From a virus: 64,000 nucleotides of DNA. The position numbers and the translations under genes are program-made. The notes beneath the pieces were generated by a model. The model ran no database searches, had not been told where the DNA came from, and was given only the letters and a program-made list of their open reading frames with translations. The DNA lies in the IMG/VR virus record IMGVR_UViG_3300049734_000491, positions 63,993 through 127,992 of that record; one strand, given 5' to 3'. Below are positions 15,899 through 61,715 of the stretch, piece by piece. Positions within the stretch are counted from its first letter, which is position 1. The number at the start of each line of letters is the position of its first letter.

Positions 15899-16423
15899 TC
15901 ACGACTGACGCTGCCGAGCCCTCCAACGTCGACCAGCTTCTCGCTGACACGTTCGACAACGACGAAACCCTTTCGGGTCGATGTACGTGTTCGCTGTGTC
16001 GTAGGGATGTCCGAACGGACAGCTGGTCATGTGTTCGTAGCGTCGACGTAGGTTCTCGGAGCGCGTAACCGGCTCGAGATGCTCAGGATTCACACACAGC
16101 GTGTTGAGGCAGAGGTGATCAAGGTCCAAGTCATCTGGAACCTTGGGTCCAAGCGCTTCGTAGATAAGTCGGTGTGCTCGATGAGTGCGACCCTGCCACT
16201 TGATCTGACCGTACCCATCACTACTGACTGTTCCTTTCCACTGCCAACAACCTGAGCTAGGGACAATTTCGTAGAGACGGTGTAAACGATCTTCAAGAGT
16301 CTCGTCACGAAATGCCCCACCAGCGTAAGGATCACCGTACCGCGACTGTCGATAGTGGTGAGGTCCGCAAAATCCATCTGCTCTGATCGGACGAGAGCAG
16401 TCTGGCAGCAAGCACTCAGACAT
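15899..16423 (-). CDS. HNH homing endonuclease
   Basis: CWQWKG..DGYG..AHRL..DHLCLNTLCVNPEHLEPV..EN. Confidence 0.88.
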   Translation of the reverse strand: MSECLLPDCSRPIRADGFCGPHHYRQSRYGDPYAGGAFRDETLEDRLHRLYEIVPSSGCWQWKGTVSSDGYGQIKWQGRTHRAHRLIYEALGPKVPDDLDLDHLCLNTLCVNPEHLEPVTRSENLRRRYEHMTSCPFGHPYDTANTYIDPKGFRRCRTCQREAGRRWRARQRQS

Positions 16424-16434
16424 CAACGTGAACT

Positions 16435-17736
16435 CTAATCGTACGGAAGCTCCAAGTGCTTCAGAATGTGGTACGCCAACCAACGTGCCACCGGTGAAGC
16501 GATCCCATTACCAATCATCTTGTATCGTGCACTATCTGGGATTTCGTTGCCACTTGAATCCCATCTAGTATGATCATCCGGCCAGCCCTGCAGTCGCTCA
16601 CACTCCCGAGGCGTGAGCCGTCGAACCCCGATCATGTCCCCAGCTACCTGTGGGACACCAGCTCCGTTGGCCACCCGTAGCGTCGGGGTGAACTTGTCCG
16701 ACACCTGCTCGTCGTGCAGGTTGTTCCCGTTGAACGAGACCACCGCCGGAGCGTGGCCGTCCGCCGGCAGCGTGGGCGAAGGATCCCCGGGCTTGGGATG
16801 GGATCGGTTGGTCTTGCTGGTGATCTGGGCGGTGTCGAACGGCATCGGCTCAGCCACGACCGTGTACATCCCCTTGTCGAGGCGGGTGGGGATCCCCTTG
16901 TAGTCGCGAGCTGTCAGCGTGTTGGCCATCTCTGGGATGAAGGTCATGCGCTCGGTGTCGGGTGACCAGCCACGTCGACCGGACCCCCCGCCCAGCGTGC
17001 CGGCCACGTCGGGGATCAAGTGGTTGGCTTGGGCGGAGTTGTCATCCGCGCCGCAACCTGCTCCAACGCCGTTTGCAGTGAGGGCGGAAGCGATCGTCCC
17101 CGACTTGCTGCCCTTCGCAGGATCCCGGCGCACCCTTTCGGTGACAGGAAGTATTTGGGGTCCACCGACTCTTCCAAGATCGAAGCAAGCGACGACGAAC
17201 ACTCGTCGGCGCCGTTGGGGGACTCCGCAGAAACGAGCATCCAGCACTCGCCACTGGATGTCCACCGCCCCGCATTCGGCCAAGAGGTCGAGGACTTGCG
17301 CGAAGTCGTCGCCCTGAGAGCTTGAGAGGGCGCCTCCGACGTTCTCCCAGACAGCATATGAGGGGATTCGTCCAAGGTCACGGTACTCCTTGATGATCCT
17401 GATCGCCTCGAGGAACAACCCCGAGCGAGTTCCTTCCTTCATGCCAGCTCGTTGACCCGAGATCGACAGATCTTGGCACGGGCTGCCGAAGCTGATGATG
17501 TCGCAGGGCGGCAGGTCCACTGCCTTCACGTCGGAGACATCGCCCCAGCGAGGTGTGTCCGGCCAGTGCCGAGCCAGGATCTCGTTGCACCACGAGTCCC
17601 ACTCGACCAGTCCCACGGTGTTGGCCCCGACTGCCTCGAAACCGAGATCCATGCCACCGACGCCGGCGAACAGGGAGAGGTGGTCGGCCCGAGGAGTGGC
17701 GATCCGTCGCTGTCGTCGGCGAGTTGGGGTAGCCAT
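16435..17736 (-). CDS. DNA (cytosine-5)-methyltransferase
   Basis: Motif I FAGVGG, motif IV GSPCQD, motif VI ENV, motif VIII QRRRRVF, LTPRECERLQG, motif X GN. Confidence 0.95.
   Translation of the reverse strand: MATPTRRRQRRIATPRADHLSLFAGVGGMDLGFEAVGANTVGLVEWDSWCNEILARHWPDTPRWGDVSDVKAVDLPPCDIISFGSPCQDLSISGQRAGMKEGTRSGLFLEAIRIIKEYRDLGRIPSYAVWENVGGALSSSQGDDFAQVLDLLAECGAVDIQWRVLDARFCGVPQRRRRVFVVACFDLGRVGGPQILPVTERVRRDPAKGSKSGTIASALTANGVGAGCGADDNSAQANHLIPDVAGTLGGGSGRRGWSPDTERMTFIPEMANTLTARDYKGIPTRLDKGMYTVVAEPMPFDTAQITSKTNRSHPKPGDPSPTLPADGHAPAVVSFNGNNLHDEQVSDKFTPTLRVANGAGVPQVAGDMIGVRRLTPRECERLQGWPDDHTRWDSSGNEIPDSARYKMIGNGIASPVARWLAYHILKHLELPYD
17016..17381 (-). CDS. Overprinted alternative-frame methyltransferase subunit (M.EcoHK31I beta-like)
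   Basis: SSLASILE..KYFLSPKGCAGILRRAASRGRSLPPSL, nested in the methyltransferase on the same strand in another frame. Confidence 0.65.
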   Translation of the reverse strand: MTLDESPHMLSGRTSEAPSQALRATTSRKSSTSWPNAGRWTSSGECWMLVSAESPNGADECSSSLASILEESVDPKYFLSPKGCAGILRRAASRGRSLPPSLQTALEQVAARMTTPPKPTT

Positions 17737-17763: not shown

Positions 17764-18048
17764 TCAGCCGGGAATGGTCAACTCATTTCGGCGCTTCCGT
17801 CGTCGGCTCGTCTGGCGGTTCTTGGCCTCATCGGTGGTGGGCCCCTCCATCATCACGACGCGGACGAGCCACTGGCGGCGGCACCGAGTGTTCACGCACT
17901 GCACCACCGTCACGGCCGTGTCGGTGGAGGGTTCCTGACCCGTCTTGTGGGTGTCCCCATCACGGTCGGACTGGAAGGTGTTGCTGTTCACGTGGTCGAC
18001 CTGTCCACCACAGCGGAGGCAGGTCACATCGAGTTGGTATCGGCTCAC
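17764..18048 (-). CDS. Zinc-ribbon protein
   Basis: CLRC...CVNTRC; TAGTAT box 6 nt before the GTG start. Confidence 0.55.
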   Translation of the reverse strand: MSRYQLDVTCLRCGGQVDHVNSNTFQSDRDGDTHKTGQEPSTDTAVTVVQCVNTRCRRQWLVRVVMMEGPTTDEAKNRQTSRRRKRRNELTIPG

Positions 18049-18079: not shown

Positions 18080-18358
18080 CGCCACCGCCGGCCGTGATTC
18101 CTGTGGCTGTCGGTGGGCTTTTGTCCGACGGTGGCGTGAGATGCCCCGCACCGCCAACCGCTCCTCGAAAGGCTGTCGAGGTAACTTCAGGTTGACGGTG
18201 CGGGAACCCGATGATCGCCACTGGTCTTGGCTGTCGATGCGACATCGGATCATTGGGTCGAGGGAGGGGCGGCTGTCGGATGTCCAATGGACCCTAGAAG
18301 GTGTCACCGCTGGCCGGAGTGCTTACAGCTGTCGCGAACTCTATGGGCCAGCGGTGAC
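18080..18358 (-). ncRNA. TIGR-like stem-loop guide array 1 (five units)
   Basis: Five hairpins whose loops read, on the - strand, NNN-N9-CGACAG-CYN-N9-CG with different spacers (one second spacer is 10 nt); directly downstream of the Tas-like gene. Confidence 0.85.
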
Positions 18359-18363
18359 GAGTA

Positions 18364-19218
18364 TTACAGACCCTCCTCTGACTTCCAGCGGGGCGGGAGG
18401 CCCGAAGCGACACGCCACAGGTCGATGCCGATCTGCTTGGCGGTGAACCGGAGGGCGGCGTTGTGCTTGTGGGCCTGCGTCCACTCCTCGCGGGCCTCGT
18501 ACTTCGCCTTGGCCTGATCGTAGGCATCACGGTAGGGAGACCGACGACGGGGCGCCCGTGTTACGGCTGTCGCGGCATTCGCGGCCGCGTCGTCGGTCAG
18601 GATGACGGGATCATCGGTACCACCACCGGTCGCGCACAGCCCAGCTCCCGTAACCACATCGGACTCGGTGGTGGTACCGGCCGAGCCGATCTGCTTGACG
18701 CAGGACTCGGCGAGCAGGTGGAGCAGCATCTTCGCCACGGGGTTGCCCAGAGCGAGGGTGTCTGCCTGGTCCATCCCCTTGCGGCGCTTGGCCGCGGGGT
18801 CGCCGTGGCCGCAGTAGGCCAGCAGCTGGCGGGGCGTGCGGTCGAACGGCTCGAGCGCCACGAGGTGGCGATCCTTGCCGCAGCGGAACGAGCACTCGTG
18901 CCCCTCGGGGGACTCGTCCATCCAGATCCACGGCTCGGCGTGGATGGGATCACCGATGGCACCGAGCAGGCGAGCCACGGTGTGCTCACCCAGTCCGACG
19001 GTGTCTCGGGCCCACGCGTAGAGCTCGGGGGCGGCGACACGGAAGGTCCGCTTCATCGCCAGCGCCAGCATCTTCTCGGTGGCCTGCAGGTTGGTCACGT
19101 GCTGGGTCATGGCCTCGGGGGCCGCTGGGATGTGGCGGAGTCTGTGCTCCGTGGCGATCCGCAGCTTCTGGGCATCGTGATAGCTCTCGGCGATCACCTT
19201 CAATTGGTCGTAGCTCAT
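18364..19218 (-). CDS. TasA-like Nop-domain RNA-guided DNA-binding protein 1 (IS110 C-terminal-like, no RuvC)
   Basis: Coiled coil, GLGEHTVARLLGAIG, QLLAYCG, GNPVAKMLL, SPYRDAYD..K, HKHNAALRFTAK; no DEDD domain; adjacent array. Confidence 0.8.
   Translation of the reverse strand: MSYDQLKVIAESYHDAQKLRIATEHRLRHIPAAPEAMTQHVTNLQATEKMLALAMKRTFRVAAPELYAWARDTVGLGEHTVARLLGAIGDPIHAEPWIWMDESPEGHECSFRCGKDRHLVALEPFDRTPRQLLAYCGHGDPAAKRRKGMDQADTLALGNPVAKMLLHLLAESCVKQIGSAGTTTESDVVTGAGLCATGGGTDDPVILTDDAAANAATAVTRAPRRRSPYRDAYDQAKAKYEAREEWTQAHKHNAALRFTAKQIGIDLWRVASGLPPRWKSEEGL
18540..18679 (-). ncRNA. Two guide hairpins embedded in frame in Tas-like gene 1
   Basis: CCG-ATGTGGTTA-CGGGAG-CTG-GGCTGTGCG-CG (18615-18679) and CCG-CGAATGCCG-CGACAG-CCG-TAACACGGG-CG (18540-18597), each closed by a long stem. 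Confidence 0.8.
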
Positions 19219-19252
19219 TGTCTTGTCCTTTGGTCGTTGTCGTTGTCGTTGG

Positions 19253-19747
19253 TCAGTTGTCGAGGTCAGCGAGACAGGTCACGCCGGCCGCGATGATGGT
19301 CTGTGCAGCCTCCTCGTGGGCGAGGCGGGTGTCACGGATGGAGTTCTCTTGGGTGAGCAGCCAGCCCGCACGGGCGAGATGGTCGTCGGCGGTTGCCTTC
19401 AACCATTCAACCCATCGTCCATCGGGCAGGATGAACGACTGCTCCATGAGCAGCCGACGGGCGGTAGTGGGGTCGGCTCCGGCCGCGATGTCGGTCCGGA
19501 CTCGGATCTCGGTCCGACGAACCTCGGCCCGCTGAATGCGGGACACCTCGTAGCGCACGAGCTGGAGCAGCCAGCGCCGTCGCTCGGACTCGGTGAGCGC
19601 AGCGATGGCTGCCTCGGCGATGTCCTGCTGATCTTCGAGACCCGAAGCGATCGCAGCCTTGATGTGGGCGTAGAGCGACGTGGGTGTCGTGACAGCCGAC
19701 GGGAGGGTAGTGGTTGTCGGTGTTGTTGGTGGTGCTTGGAACGTCAT
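19253..19747 (-). CDS. Tas-associated partner protein 1 (function unknown)
   Basis: DGRWVEWLKATADDHLARAGW...IAAGVTCLADL; paralog of 60863-61561. Confidence 0.7.
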   Translation of the reverse strand: MTFQAPPTTPTTTTLPSAVTTPTSLYAHIKAAIASGLEDQQDIAEAAIAALTESERRRWLLQLVRYEVSRIQRAEVRRTEIRVRTDIAAGADPTTARRLLMEQSFILPDGRWVEWLKATADDHLARAGWLLTQENSIRDTRLAHEEAAQTIIAAGVTCLADLDN

Positions 19748-19818
19748 GGCGGTGACTATAACACACGGTCCTTCGCTGCTGACAAATTACCTGTGGTATC
19801 CACAGGAAGGAGCTCGCT

Positions 19819-58463: not shown

Positions 58464-59603
58464 TCAGGCCGGTGCTGGAACCGACGTCTCGGCGTACCGC
58501 TGGTGGCGCTGGCCCGAGATGTAGTTCGGTGAGGTCGAGATCATGGCGATGGCCACGTCCGGTCCGTCGTCGGTGACGTCGCACGGTGTGCGGAAATCGC
58601 ACCAGCCGCAGGCATCGCTGGGGGACGGGAAGGCGTACCGCTCGGCCAGGTGCACCGTGGAGGGCTGGGCGGTCAGGGGCGTGACGTCGGCGGACGGGGG
58701 CGTGACCGGATCGAGCTGCAACGTGGCGTCGATGAGCTCGGCCACCACCGAGAAGATCTGCCGTCGGCGGCTGCGGCGCAGCGCCTGGGAGTGCGTGATC
58801 GGCAGGTCCCTCACCTCGGTGGGGGCATTTCTGGAGCGGGGTCGCTGGATGATCCGGTAGTTGAACTCGGCTGGGGGAGAGTTGGTTGAGATTGCCCGGG
58901 CCCGTGCCTCTTGGAGCGGAGCCGGTAGATCCTGAGCCATCTCCAGAAGCATGTCGTAGAAATACGACTGATTGGATCGCTGGAACCCCTCGTCCACCTG
59001 GAAGGTCCGGCCCGTCGTCTTCCAGTCCGTCATCCGGATCTGGGCGTAGCGGGGATCACTGGGATCGGGCGAGGTGTGCTGCTGAACCAGGTCGACCTTG
59101 CCCTGCAACCGGATCGCTGTGAAGCCCTGCTGCCGGAGTTGGGACGTCCGCTGGGCCACGGCGTGGGGGGAGTCGAGTTGTTCCCAGACGGGATCATCGA
59201 ACTCGAGGGTGTACCGCAACTTGGCTTCGGTGCAGACAGGATCCCACTGGGCGTCGGGTTGGTTCTCCTCCAGCCAGGTCACGTAGTCAGCCACCATCCG
59301 CCGACCGAGCAGCACATCCTCGTAGAGCTTGTCGCACACCCAGGGTGGCTGGCCGGTGCTCGAGGCCCGGGCGATGTCACGCTGGGCAAGCTCCTCGAAA
59401 AGCTGTCTGGGGTCTCTCGGGCCGGCTGGGTCGTAGTGACCCTCGAGCGCCTCGTGCACCCGGACACCGGCTGGGGCTGCTCCGACCGGGAACCGTGCAT
59501 CGCTGAACCCGAGCACGTAGTTGAACCAGAACTGTCTCCTGCACTGCAGGAAGCTGGCGATATCGGAATGGCTGATGTCAAAAGAACGGCCTGTACGAGT
59601 CAT
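58464..59603 (-). CDS. PD-(D/E)XK exonuclease (Cas4/RecB-like, Cys cluster)
   Basis: SHS..FLQCRRQ, G.RVHEALE, GKVDLV, DWKT, CGWCDFRTPC. Confidence 0.85.
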   Translation of the reverse strand: MTRTGRSFDISHSDIASFLQCRRQFWFNYVLGFSDARFPVGAAPAGVRVHEALEGHYDPAGPRDPRQLFEELAQRDIARASSTGQPPWVCDKLYEDVLLGRRMVADYVTWLEENQPDAQWDPVCTEAKLRYTLEFDDPVWEQLDSPHAVAQRTSQLRQQGFTAIRLQGKVDLVQQHTSPDPSDPRYAQIRMTDWKTTGRTFQVDEGFQRSNQSYFYDMLLEMAQDLPAPLQEARARAISTNSPPAEFNYRIIQRPRSRNAPTEVRDLPITHSQALRRSRRRQIFSVVAELIDATLQLDPVTPPSADVTPLTAQPSTVHLAERYAFPSPSDACGWCDFRTPCDVTDDGPDVAIAMISTSPNYISGQRHQRYAETSVPAPA

Positions 59604-59835
59604 GATCCGTACCGTTTCCTTGGTCCCAGCGGGAACGTGGATGGGTCTGGATCAGACTCGCACAGGCCTGTGACAAAATCGAGGATGGTCTACCTCTTGT
59701 TGGAGGGAGTGGACGATCCCCGTGGGGTGGTGTCTGCCGCGACCTTGGCGGTGCCGGTGCCGGCTCCGGTGCTGGTACCGATGCGGTAGACGCCCCGATC
59801 ACTCGCCCAGAGTACCTGTAATCAGTTGAGGAATA

Positions 59836-60011
59836 GTCCCCAGCGGCGGTCATCAAGGGGGTATCGCATCTTCTAAGGCCGCTGGGGACCGAGGATGCCA
59901 TCGACGGCGACTCTGGTTTGGGCATCGCTACTTCTACGACCGTCGATGGCGAAGGTGTCCCCGACGGCGGGGTATCGGTGGGTATCGCATGTGCTCCGAC
60001 CGTCGGGGACA
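59836..60011 (-). ncRNA. TIGR-like stem-loop guide array 2 (three units; a degenerate fourth at 59730-59793)
   Basis: Hairpins with loops NNN-N9-CGATRC-CCM-N9-CG; spacer pairs GAGCACATG/CCGATACCC, TAGAAGTAG/AACCAGAGT, TAGAAGATG/CTTGATGAC. Confidence 0.85.
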
Positions 60012-60017
60012 GACCAG

Positions 60018-60866
60018 TCACGCAAGCGTCGTCAGGTAGAGGTTATAGAGCCGACGAAGGAACTCCTTCGAGGTCCGCCGGATGGCGGCGTTGTCAGCGT
60101 GTCCCTTCGTCCAGCCGCGCTCTGAGTACATGAGCTTGGAGAGGTCGAGGTAGCAGCGGAGACAGAGGTCGTCCCGGACAGCGTCGCTACTGTGGGTGTC
60201 GGTCATACCATGACCGCCCGGGACGACGAAGGTGCCATCGACGGCGGGGCATCGGTGGGTGTCGTATGTGCTCTGGCCGTCAGGGAGATCGAGGACGCAG
60301 CCCGGAGTGTGCTCACCGGCCTTCCTGATCTGTGTCGTGTTCAAGTAGAGCAATGACTTGATGCGGACGTTGCCGGACGCCATCGCCTCGGACTGTGTCA
60401 TGCCCTTGGTGCGGCGGCGGGTCGGGTCGCCCAGAGCGCAGTAGGACCAGAGCTGGGAAACGGATCGGATCTGCGGCTCACCCTGCACCAACACCCGTTC
60501 GTCCGTGCTCCCCGCCTCGGATCCGGGAATCCACCACTTCGGGATGGCGACCACCGGATGTCCGATCGCTCCGAGGATCCGTGCGACGGTGTGCTCGCCG
60601 ACACCGCGCTGTGCCGCGACCCACTCCCGCACCGGTTCGGGAACGACATCACGGTAGGTCCTCTTCAGGGCCTTGCTGGCGGCCTTCTCGATCTCAGTCA
60701 ACAGATGGATCTGATCGTCGAAGAGACCAGCAGGAGCGTGTCTCAAACGATTACCGGTAGCGATCCTCATCAGCTGCATATCAGTGAACTGATCGGCGGC
60801 GAGACGCAGGAGCCGGTACTGATCATCAAGGGCGTCGATGGCATCGACATCCTTGAGGTCGATCAC
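60018..60866 (-). CDS. TasA-like Nop-domain protein 2
   Basis: GVGEHTVARILGAIG, SQLWSYCALGDP, GNVRIKSLL, GHADNAAIRRTSKEFL; paralog of 18364-19218. Confidence 0.8.
   Translation of the reverse strand: MIDLKDVDAIDALDDQYRLLRLAADQFTDMQLMRIATGNRLRHAPAGLFDDQIHLLTEIEKAASKALKRTYRDVVPEPVREWVAAQRGVGEHTVARILGAIGHPVVAIPKWWIPGSEAGSTDERVLVQGEPQIRSVSQLWSYCALGDPTRRRTKGMTQSEAMASGNVRIKSLLYLNTTQIRKAGEHTPGCVLDLPDGQSTYDTHRCPAVDGTFVVPGGHGMTDTHSSDAVRDDLCLRCYLDLSKLMYSERGWTKGHADNAAIRRTSKEFLRRLYNLYLTTLA
60168..60281 (-). ncRNA. Two guide hairpins embedded in frame in Tas-like gene 2
   Basis: CCA-GAGCACATA-CGACAC-CCA-CCGATGCCC-CG and TCA-TGGTATGAC-CGACAC-CCA-CAGTAGCGA-CG, each within a stem. Confidence 0.8.
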
Positions 60867-61561
60867 GCCAGCTCCTTCGGCGGGACAACCGTCAGGAGTG
60901 ATGCATCGGTCGACGGTGGCTCGGGACGCTTGGCCTCGGGCAATGCAGCGAGGTTGGGCACGCCGGCCTCAATGAGAGCATCGATCGCGTTCTGGTGCCG
61001 CTGGCAGTCGGTCTGGAGCGGTTCAATGTACCGCCGGTTGATCCAAGCGATCCGACCAGCGTGCTGTTCGATGGTCGCCTCAAGCCAGTCGACGTAGTCG
61101 GTGCCGTCGAAGAACTTGTACCCACCGAGTTGGTCCTTGGCGAGACGCGACCACGTCCGATGAACCGGTTCGGTCTCAGCCACCTCGACCTCCTCGGTGG
61201 GGATGTGTTCCGATTCACCGTTCTCTGCGGACTCACCCTCCTCAGTGGCAGGTGGGGGAGTGGTAACGGGGACGGTGGGGGTGTACGGATCGCCCACAGC
61301 ATTCTCGGCATCACGGGTCAGAGCCCGCTGCCACGTCTTGGCCTCCTTGATGAGCGAGGCGAGGACATACTTCTCGTACTCCGCTGTGGTCATCGCCTTG
61401 ATCGCCCGCTCAGCCAGCTTCTCCGGATCGGTGGTGTGGGGCTCGTCCCGATGTGGAACCGCCGAGGCGAAGATCTCAACCAGTGGTCGGATCTTCGGAG
61501 TGGATGACGACGAGGTCGTCGAAGTGGGCGTGGTCATCATCGTCACGTCGACGAGTTCCAT
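60863..61561 (-). CDS. Tas-associated partner protein 2
   Basis: DGTDYVDWLEATIEQHAGRIAW...IEAGVPNLAAL; GTGA-coupled to Tas-like gene 2. Confidence 0.7.
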   Translation of the reverse strand: MELVDVTMMTTPTSTTSSSSTPKIRPLVEIFASAVPHRDEPHTTDPEKLAERAIKAMTTAEYEKYVLASLIKEAKTWQRALTRDAENAVGDPYTPTVPVTTPPPATEEGESAENGESEHIPTEEVEVAETEPVHRTWSRLAKDQLGGYKFFDGTDYVDWLEATIEQHAGRIAWINRRYIEPLQTDCQRHQNAIDALIEAGVPNLAALPEAKRPEPPSTDASLLTVVPPKELA

Positions 61562-61686
61562 GAGATCTCCCTGTTGGTCTTGGTCTTGGTCTTGGTCTTG
61601 ATCATCGGCAGTTGGCCACATGAAGCAGGGAGACCAGTAGGTCATCTCTCACACCGACTGCCGCCTCGGGTTCAAGTAGGCGTTGG

Positions 61687-61715
61687 AGTATACGAGTTGT
61701 AGTGCATGATTGCAA
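61687..61715 (-). promoter_or_regulatory. SigA-like promoter of TIGR-like locus 2
   Basis: TTGCAA-17 nt-TATACT on the - strand. Confidence 0.7.

Follow-up and report, generated by a model that had tools for sequence, protein, structure and literature searches.

Two genes in a stretch of 64,000 nt from a tailed-phage genome (IMG/VR record IMGVR_UViG_3300049734_000491; the whole stretch is called the window here) belong to a large family of small phage-borne proteins whose members almost always stand directly upstream of tasA genes of the nuclease-less, stem-loop TIGR-Tas type. This family suggests an undescribed second protein part in stem-loop TIGR-TasA, and thereby a two-gene subtype of the system. 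The genes are named p1 and p2 and their family the partner family. The virus record is 127,992 bp long, with a CheckV completeness of 95%, and the window covers its second half (63993-127992); the window has a G+C content of 63% and carries tailed-phage genes for a tape measure, tail proteins, a terminase, a DNA polymerase, a helicase and a C5 methyltransferase.

Both p1 and p2 are protein-coding genes, and they are diverged paralogues within the family. BLASTP aligns 72 of their C-terminal residues at 33% identity (E=1e-5), covering the two motifs by which a first-pass annotation of the window had paired them, DG..V.WL.AT...H..R..W (with a one-residue indel in p2) and I.AGV..LA.L; in the family alignment they are 27% identical. 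The Thr-rich N-termini that it had listed as a further shared trait are borne out by counts on the translations (10 T in residues 1-24 of p1; 7 T and 5 S in residues 1-26 of p2, numbered from the start at 61561), and AlphaFold confidence is low for these Thr/Ser-rich ends in both proteins. The reading frame of p2 is open as far as 61645 (260 aa); the ATG at 61561 is the likelier start, because a GGGAG ribosome-binding site (RBS) and a CAAGAC-repeat leader precede it, 3′ of a promoter-like TTGCAA-17-TATACT site. Each partner gene does lie directly 5′ of a Tas-like gene, one of the two pairs being coupled as had been noticed: the p1 stop is followed by a 34-nt gap before the first tasA-like gene, while the p2 stop and the GTG start of the second overlap as GTGA.

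Searches with single sequences were too insensitive to reveal the family. For p1, tblastn against phages came back empty, as did blastn with the locus; a word-based protein search returned one p1 relative and for p2 only a fragment of p2 itself, and single partner proteins scanned in IMG/VR gave nothing new. A tblastn search of phages with TasA matched 84 records, and its top three, Gordonia phage Morrissey, Arthrobacter phage Talia1610 and Mycobacterium phage HermioneGrange, have a gene of 150-190 aa upstream of TasA. These upstream genes resemble one another, can be aligned with p1 and p2, and match PHROG 4604, a family of unknown function (HermioneGrange gp75, E=2.7e-77; Morrissey gp43, E=4.9e-23; Talia1610 gp253, E=4.5e-13). 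The window proteins did not reach PHROG 4604 directly, p1 matching only phrog_2342 (E=0.0017) and p2 nothing in PHROGs; a p1 homologue that is 63% identical (P0002) matches PHROG 4604 at E=0.0084. The window copies are outlying members of a PHROG 4604-related family.

Since the earlier profiles contained p1 and p2 themselves, a profile was built from 57 foreign family members with the window sequences excluded. Its E-values (Z=5725) are E=1.4e-12 for p1 and E=1.8e-4 for p2, and among six-frame ORFs (open reading frames) of at least 50 aa in the window nothing else matches at E<=1; the whole phage record likewise has just two partner matches. An exhaustive profile search matched 4,339 representative 50%-identity clusters at E<=1e-3, 2,236 at 1e-10 and 550 at 1e-30. 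The best 150 listed members are 150-257 aa long, and the source names of 10 representative partner proteins were 'hypothetical protein' or absent. GC-rich DNA holds many spurious ORFs and the Thr-rich N-termini are of low complexity, so that the two frames might in principle be chance open frames or by-products of RNA elements; we give this next to no credence. It is already contradicted by the cluster count, by the window-free profile, which records amino-acid conservation shared with foreign viruses, and by the confident fold prediction for p1 described below, and hairpin density within partner coding sequences (CDSs) is at background (1.1/kb).

The downstream neighbours are true TasA homologues by profile evidence. 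They are 35% identical to each other (BLASTP, E=3e-37), neither has a Pfam match, and PHROGs labels them 'transposase' (phrog_4285). A TasA profile (A4) was made from 54 of 60 non-redundant relatives, omitting L026, L069, L071, L072, L078 and L079, whose ORFs are very long or truncated. In the Protein Data Bank (PDB) it matches 9mty_A, deposited as an IS110 C-terminal-domain protein (E=6.4e-31), and TasH, represented by 21kl_A (E=6.7e-21) plus seven further entries; the matches to solved Tas structures span profile positions 12-240 of 259, nearly the whole Nop-type domain. The Tas profile in turn spans the window proteins from residue 6 or 20 to near the C-terminal end, and a nuclease domain is absent; because the 282 and 284 residues are almost fully covered, there is no room for one.

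Linkage was examined first from the side of tasA. An IMG/VR scan with the TasA alignment gave 78 loci, which with three GenBank phages and the two window loci made a set of 83 tasA genes. A partner profile seeded from the six first partners and run for three rounds recognized, among same-strand ORFs just 5′ of tasA, 71 at E<=1e-4 in round one and 82 after the third. With starts trimmed, a partner-family ORF is found directly upstream on the same strand in 82/82 testable loci; the 83rd tasA (L046) has only 16 nt of upstream sequence and hence falls outside the testable set. At 90% identity there are 59 non-redundant partners, and in at least 21 loci the partner stop overlaps the start of the next ORF by 4 nt. 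The genes around the pair vary. Our scan of the flanks, which kept only plus-strand ORFs of at least 60 aa with raised GC3 (G+C at third codon positions) within 700 nt, yielded 45 downstream and 49 upstream ORFs from 57 loci, and no PHROG family occurs in more than 2 of these 94. Pairwise identities among partners and among TasA proteins are correlated (r=0.77 over the 53 loci common to A4 and the partner alignment A3; maximum of 999 permutations, 0.24), with the partner evolving faster (mean identity 22% vs 44% for TasA). The gene-neighbourhood analysis that the first-pass annotation had proposed as a check therefore supports its pairing of the two genes, and these linkage data show a dedicated functional tie of the partner to this TasA clade. 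Exactly one strong partner match was found in each of 50 whole viral records (covering 50 of the 78 loci; 21 of the records are at least 90% complete), two of which have an extra marginal match at about 1e-4; this phage, with its two partner sets, is unusual.

The spacer between the partner and the TasA core, mostly 100-600 nt long, is rich in stem-loop units: 189 in 18,464 nt, or 10.2/kb, compared with 1.35 and 1.01/kb in the outer flanks and the background figure given above inside partner genes. At least one unit lies there in 44 of 57 non-redundant loci. Because the spacer is packed with units in most loci, the canonical order is partner, array, tasA, and the window loci are a variant with the array in and behind tasA. 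Roughly half of the loci have a spacer that reads through in frame, without a stop codon, from the partner stop into the TasA core, and the translated spacer has recurring D-(T/S)-(Q/H) peptides, which are the tigRNA loop motif in translation. The tasA ORFs of L016, L019, L024, L048, L053, L063 and others start at an ATGA-type overlap with the partner and have 100-250 extra N-terminal codons. Public annotations place short 'hypothetical protein' CDSs between partner and tasA in HermioneGrange (gp74, L003:2335-2436), Talia1610 (gp254, L002:1980-2243) and prophiFSAT01-1 (gp26, L084:3321-3545); these may be guide arrays mis-called as genes, because the spacer in which they are located carries many stem-loop units in related loci.

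Searches that started from the partner led to an adjacent tasA in 9/10 loci checked. A back-translated DNA motif pattern found six stretches in IMG/VR, five of them true partners, four with tasA adjacent (L086, L089 and L091, and L087 via L092). The same pattern found eight stretches in GTDB genomes, of which three were true partners (in Streptomyces, Nocardioides and a metagenome-assembled genome (MAG) of Vicinamibacterales), all three next to tasA. In the phage collection, tblastn with a representative partner gave seven records; two were checked, Chanagan through its coordinates and prophiFSAT01-1 with the profile, and in each tasA is adjacent. Homologues occurring mostly without Tas genes or arrays, the outcome that would have spoken against a dedicated partner, are thus not what these loci present. 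The Vicinamibacterales pair (L097, on a contig titled uncultured Vicinamibacterales MAG) shows that the cassette extends beyond actinophages, since it lies outside Actinomycetota. In a sample of 401 genomes from the phylum to which the Streptomyces hit belongs, a strong partner match was found in that genome only, and the family is therefore mainly virus-borne.

AlphaFold2, run with 59 sequences, produced a confident p1 model (predicted local distance difference test (pLDDT) 91.2, predicted template modelling score (pTM) 0.61). Two short helices (residues 25-34 and 40-49) come first in it, followed by a long helix (53-88), a further helix (93-101), a beta-hairpin (104-114) and finally a second long helix (120-154). 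The p2 model (pLDDT 73) has the same order of elements plus an acidic disordered insert of about 45 residues. The architecture common to both, from the models and alignment A3, is short N-terminal helices, a long helix, a variable linker, a helix, the beta-hairpin and a long C-terminal helix with a GV.TV.DL end. In BFVD the top four hits are identical and in the same order for the two models, and all are uncharacterised phage proteins. Foldseek against the PDB gave nothing at E<=0.001; the wide VIA-align search reached a best Z of 6.1, and 5.7 on a second look, with generic helical hairpins only; ESM Atlas had no usable match; and neither p1 nor profile A3 had a convincing sequence match in the PDB. 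A Pfam scan of the 59 members (E<=1) turned up no family shared by two or more of them, and ParB families were absent from the 25 of 46 matched families that were listed. Profile-profile comparison of partner and Tas showed no relation, and an origin of the partner as a remote paralogue of the Tas coiled coil was rejected (hhalign probability 0.2). Complex prediction for TasA copy 1 with p1, from alignments A4 and A3, gave no answer (score 0.00 in two runs, controls not folded) and carries no weight here.

The family is mildly acidic, with a median isoelectric point (pI) of 6.1 (5.4 for p1, 4.8 for p2). Its best-conserved positions are mostly hydrophobic with a few polar ones (S.K..IR..W; K.L.DCT..DL), the S.K..IR segment is absent from p1, which has several residues of the K.L.DCT..DL segment replaced as well, and the family conservation table holds no conserved catalytic-looking residues. 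These features do not resemble those of an enzyme or of a classical nucleic-acid-binding protein.

These properties bear on two other roles. As a small, helical protein encoded by the first gene behind the operon promoter, the partner might regulate transcription, either of the operon or of phage genes elsewhere, by binding DNA with the three helices of its N-terminal part, its link to tasA then being a genetic one only. We regard this as unlikely: several helix-turn-helix proteins do appear among the weak fold matches (E>0.3), but all fold matches are at the noise level cited above, no helix-turn-helix family was detected in the 59 members, the protein is acidic overall, and neither co-diversification with TasA nor strict adjacency to tasA amid changing neighbours is expected of a generic regulator. 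Less improbable, though still doubtful, is a factor for tigRNA maturation or loading that acts on the pre-tigRNA transcribed just downstream of its gene, for instance through a host RNase that it recruits or by chaperoning stem-loops onto TasA. The array begins right after the partner stop in most loci, and the role is attractive in that stem-loop Tas is without a processing loop and its maturation is left unexplained in the available part of bioRxiv 10.64898/2026.09.09.750476. The acidity of the family, the missing catalytic-looking residues, the absence from p1 of the one basic segment (S.K..IR) and the want of an RNA-binding fold among the fold-search results all speak against such a factor; moreover, the arrays in the window do not adjoin the partner, and the flank that aids processing in the same preprint, as far as its available part goes, is downstream of tasA and not upstream.

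On balance, the partner is probably a dedicated non-enzymatic cofactor of its cognate nuclease-less TasA, a helical and probably dimeric adaptor; its binding, its stoichiometry and the adaptor role are what we infer. A protein cofactor that contacts TasA or its ribonucleoprotein is the most economical mechanism, since it fits co-transcription, frequent coupling, co-divergence and the presence of two cognate sets in one phage. The system would then be a discrete cassette of promoter, partner as first gene, stem-loop tigRNA array and tasA, with the array in this phage moved into and behind tasA. A single transcript would yield partner and TasA in step, and the partner would make contact with the dimer of TasA, or with its ribonucleoprotein, and would set or relay the action of the DNA-bound complex. 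The two diverged partner/TasA/array sets of this phage (partners 27% and TasA 35% identical, with different loop motifs) fit cognate specificity. Of the proposal made in the first-pass annotation, that a dedicated accessory subunit supplies what nuclease-less Tas lacks and could define a two-component subtype, one half has held: near-universal same-strand adjacency, start/stop overlaps, varied flanks, co-diversification and the partner-first loci support a dedicated partner and a two-gene subtype. The other half, in which the partner would supply a missing nuclease-like or effector activity, is unsupported, given a mildly acidic protein with no known domain or fold and no catalytic-looking residues.

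Several points weigh against a dedicated cofactor. Binding of partner to TasA is an inferred step, and no partner-TasA fusion was found among longer proteins, which is weak evidence. One partner is an orphan: L090:7229-7780(-) matches the family at E=2e-30 and has no adjacent tasA, its record (29.9 kb, 39% complete) is without a tasA match, and a convergent ORF 130 nt downstream is terminase-like by reading of its translation, no family search having been run. Two weak partial partner-like matches (E about 1e-7) occur in genomes without tasA in the 401-genome sample. Most of the linkage counts come from loci selected by tasA, the contexts of the 4,339 clusters being outside their scope, and a correlated divergence would be expected of any pair of genes with a common genome history as well. 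Finally, TasA of other clades functions both in E. coli and in human cells, and no partner for it is named in the available parts of bioRxiv 10.64898/2026.09.09.750476 and bioRxiv 10.64898/2026.08.11.744272, and the first of these reports DNA binding and transcriptional repression, likewise with no named partner; the partner is therefore not needed for DNA binding as such. The orphan, together with the lack of a fusion and of direct evidence for interaction, could be read to mean that the partner is an unrelated phage early gene travelling beside tasA with no functional tie. We consider this very unlikely, as adjacency is kept in all testable loci despite a mean partner identity of about 22%, starts and stops frequently overlap, the array is sandwiched between the two genes, and all other neighbours vary.

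A Nop-domain scaffold with a small helper protein has a familiar counterpart in the box C/D small ribonucleoprotein, where Nop5 works with the small partner proteins L7Ae and fibrillarin. This is an analogy only: the partner has no sequence or fold resemblance to either, and their families were unlisted in the fold searches. The stem-loop TIGR-TasA systems already described (PMC12045711; bioRxiv 10.64898/2026.09.09.750476) share with the present loci a nuclease-less Nop-domain Tas and dual-spacer stem-loops, some of them within the tasA frame; the available parts of these papers treat them as single-protein effectors, whereas here a second conserved gene heads the operon. As far as the available part of PMC12045711 extends, TasA has no clear protein associations apart from tasParB. 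The tasParB-tasA operons described there resemble ours in having a second gene conserved beside tasA while the flanks vary, and their arrays lie upstream, downstream or between both genes. The second genes differ: tasParB is ParB-like and goes with dual-repeat arrays, whereas the partner is without a recurrent Pfam family, goes with stem-loop arrays and is predicted to be a helical protein of about 160 aa with one beta-hairpin. TasA partners other than tasParB are not described in the parts of the TIGR-Tas literature covered by our search, and the supplementary tables of PMC12045711 may already hold the family.

The coordinates of the two operons are collected in Table 1.

Table 1. Partner genes, tasA-like genes, guide units and candidate control sites of the two window loci (window coordinates)
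Feature	Position	Strand	Remarks
Partner gene 1 (p1)	19253-19747	(-)	164 aa; ATG start; GC3 0.76; short divergent family member
TasA-like gene 1	18364-19218	(-)	284 aa; Nop/IS110-C-type domain, no nuclease domain
Locus 1 stem-loop guide units	18080-18598	(-)	loop motif CGACAGC; sequence and hairpin scan
Locus 1 unit within tasA CDS	18598-18539	(-)	
Locus 1 units 3′ of tasA	18358-18303, 18289-18243 (weak), 18205-18144, 18136-18080	(-)	
Operon 1 promoter-like site	19755-19785	(-)	TTGTCA, 19 nt, TGtTATAGT; read by eye
Terminator-like hairpin	19806-19790	(-)	just upstream of operon 1 promoter-like site; called by scan
Partner gene 2 (p2)	60863-61561	(-)	232 aa from RBS-preceded ATG; same helix/hairpin order as p1
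TasA-like gene 2	60018-60866	(-)	282 aa; GTG start
Locus 2 stem-loop guide units	59835-60282	(-)	loop motif CGAYRCCC; sequence and hairpin scan
Locus 2 units within tasA CDS	60282-60239, 60227-60168	(-)	
Locus 2 units 3′ of tasA	60011-59956, 59950-59897, 59890-59835	(-)	
Operon 2 promoter-like site	61687-61715	(-)	TTGCAA-17-TATACT

Each locus has five guide units with stems of 7-16 bp and a conserved central motif that differs between the loci. The unit interiors measure 30 nt in 5/5 units of locus 2 and 2/5 of locus 1, and 33-38 nt in the other three units of locus 1; at locus 2, the spacers of unit 60282-60239 almost duplicate those of unit 60011-59956. Three 151-nt records from two soil RNA libraries of two studies are identical to 18216-18366, 18307-18457 and 18554-18704, and so cover the locus 1 array and the unit inside the CDS, which places these sequences in an RNA library and is not proof of transcription. 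None of the three falls on a partner gene, and they are uninformative on partner expression. A self-targeting scan of the 128-kb genome with 6 of the roughly 10 units, requiring paired-spacer 8-mers within 40 nt, identified no target; beyond the units themselves it gave two imperfect sites (genome 52801-52849 and window 16400-16450), whose number is close to the chance expectation on our own estimate and whose geometries disagree.

The consensus promoter scan made no call for the operon 1 site, whose spacer is 19 nt. The p1 ATG is only 7 nt past the -10 of this promoter-like site, and the p1 mRNA may for that reason be leaderless. Unstructured leaders rich in CAA, CGA or CAAGAC, with an AAGGA or GGGAG RBS, precede tasA-1 (19219-19252) and p2 (61562-61610), and a perfect 6-nt tandem repeat of 4.5 copies (TTGGTC on the plus strand) occupies 61574-61600. 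The 11-mer ACGACACCCAC has exactly two copies in the window, both (-), at 19680-19690 in the 5′ part of p1 and at 60255-60265, where it forms the loop plus flank of a locus 2 guide unit. With up to one mismatch it has seven matches against 2.9 expected, a number reached by 2 of 100 shuffles, and the recurrence is probably chance.

Behind array 2 lies a Cas4/RecB-like exonuclease gene (58464-59603(-); phrog_1218, E=1e-18), and HermioneGrange has a Cas4 exonuclease two genes downstream of tasA; across loci, the 94 flanking ORFs contain no exonuclease family more than twice. Array 1 is followed directly by an ORF for a Cys-rich, zinc-finger-like protein of 94 aa with no PHROG match (17764-18048(-)) and then by a C5 DNA methyltransferase gene (16435-17736(-); phrog_116, E=7e-83).

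The TIGR-Tas literature leaves open what biological role nuclease-less TasA plays in phages (PMC12045711), and a second protein conserved in essentially every locus of a large clade is a concrete handle on that role. The clade takes in cluster A mycobacteriophages, which are readily manipulated in Mycobacterium smegmatis. Reconstitution and engineering with TasA only may miss a native component, and several short 'hypothetical proteins' in public phage records may be guide arrays. We put forward tentatively, as possible and short of probable, a stronger version in which the partner is an obligate second subunit that makes a very widespread actinophage TIGR-TasA clade a two-protein RNA-guided system, serving as the missing maturation or assembly factor for stem-loop tigRNAs or as an adaptor through which DNA-bound TasA is coupled to replication, recombination or transcription of the phage. 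If that is true, the two diverged sets carried by this phage would be orthogonal channels.

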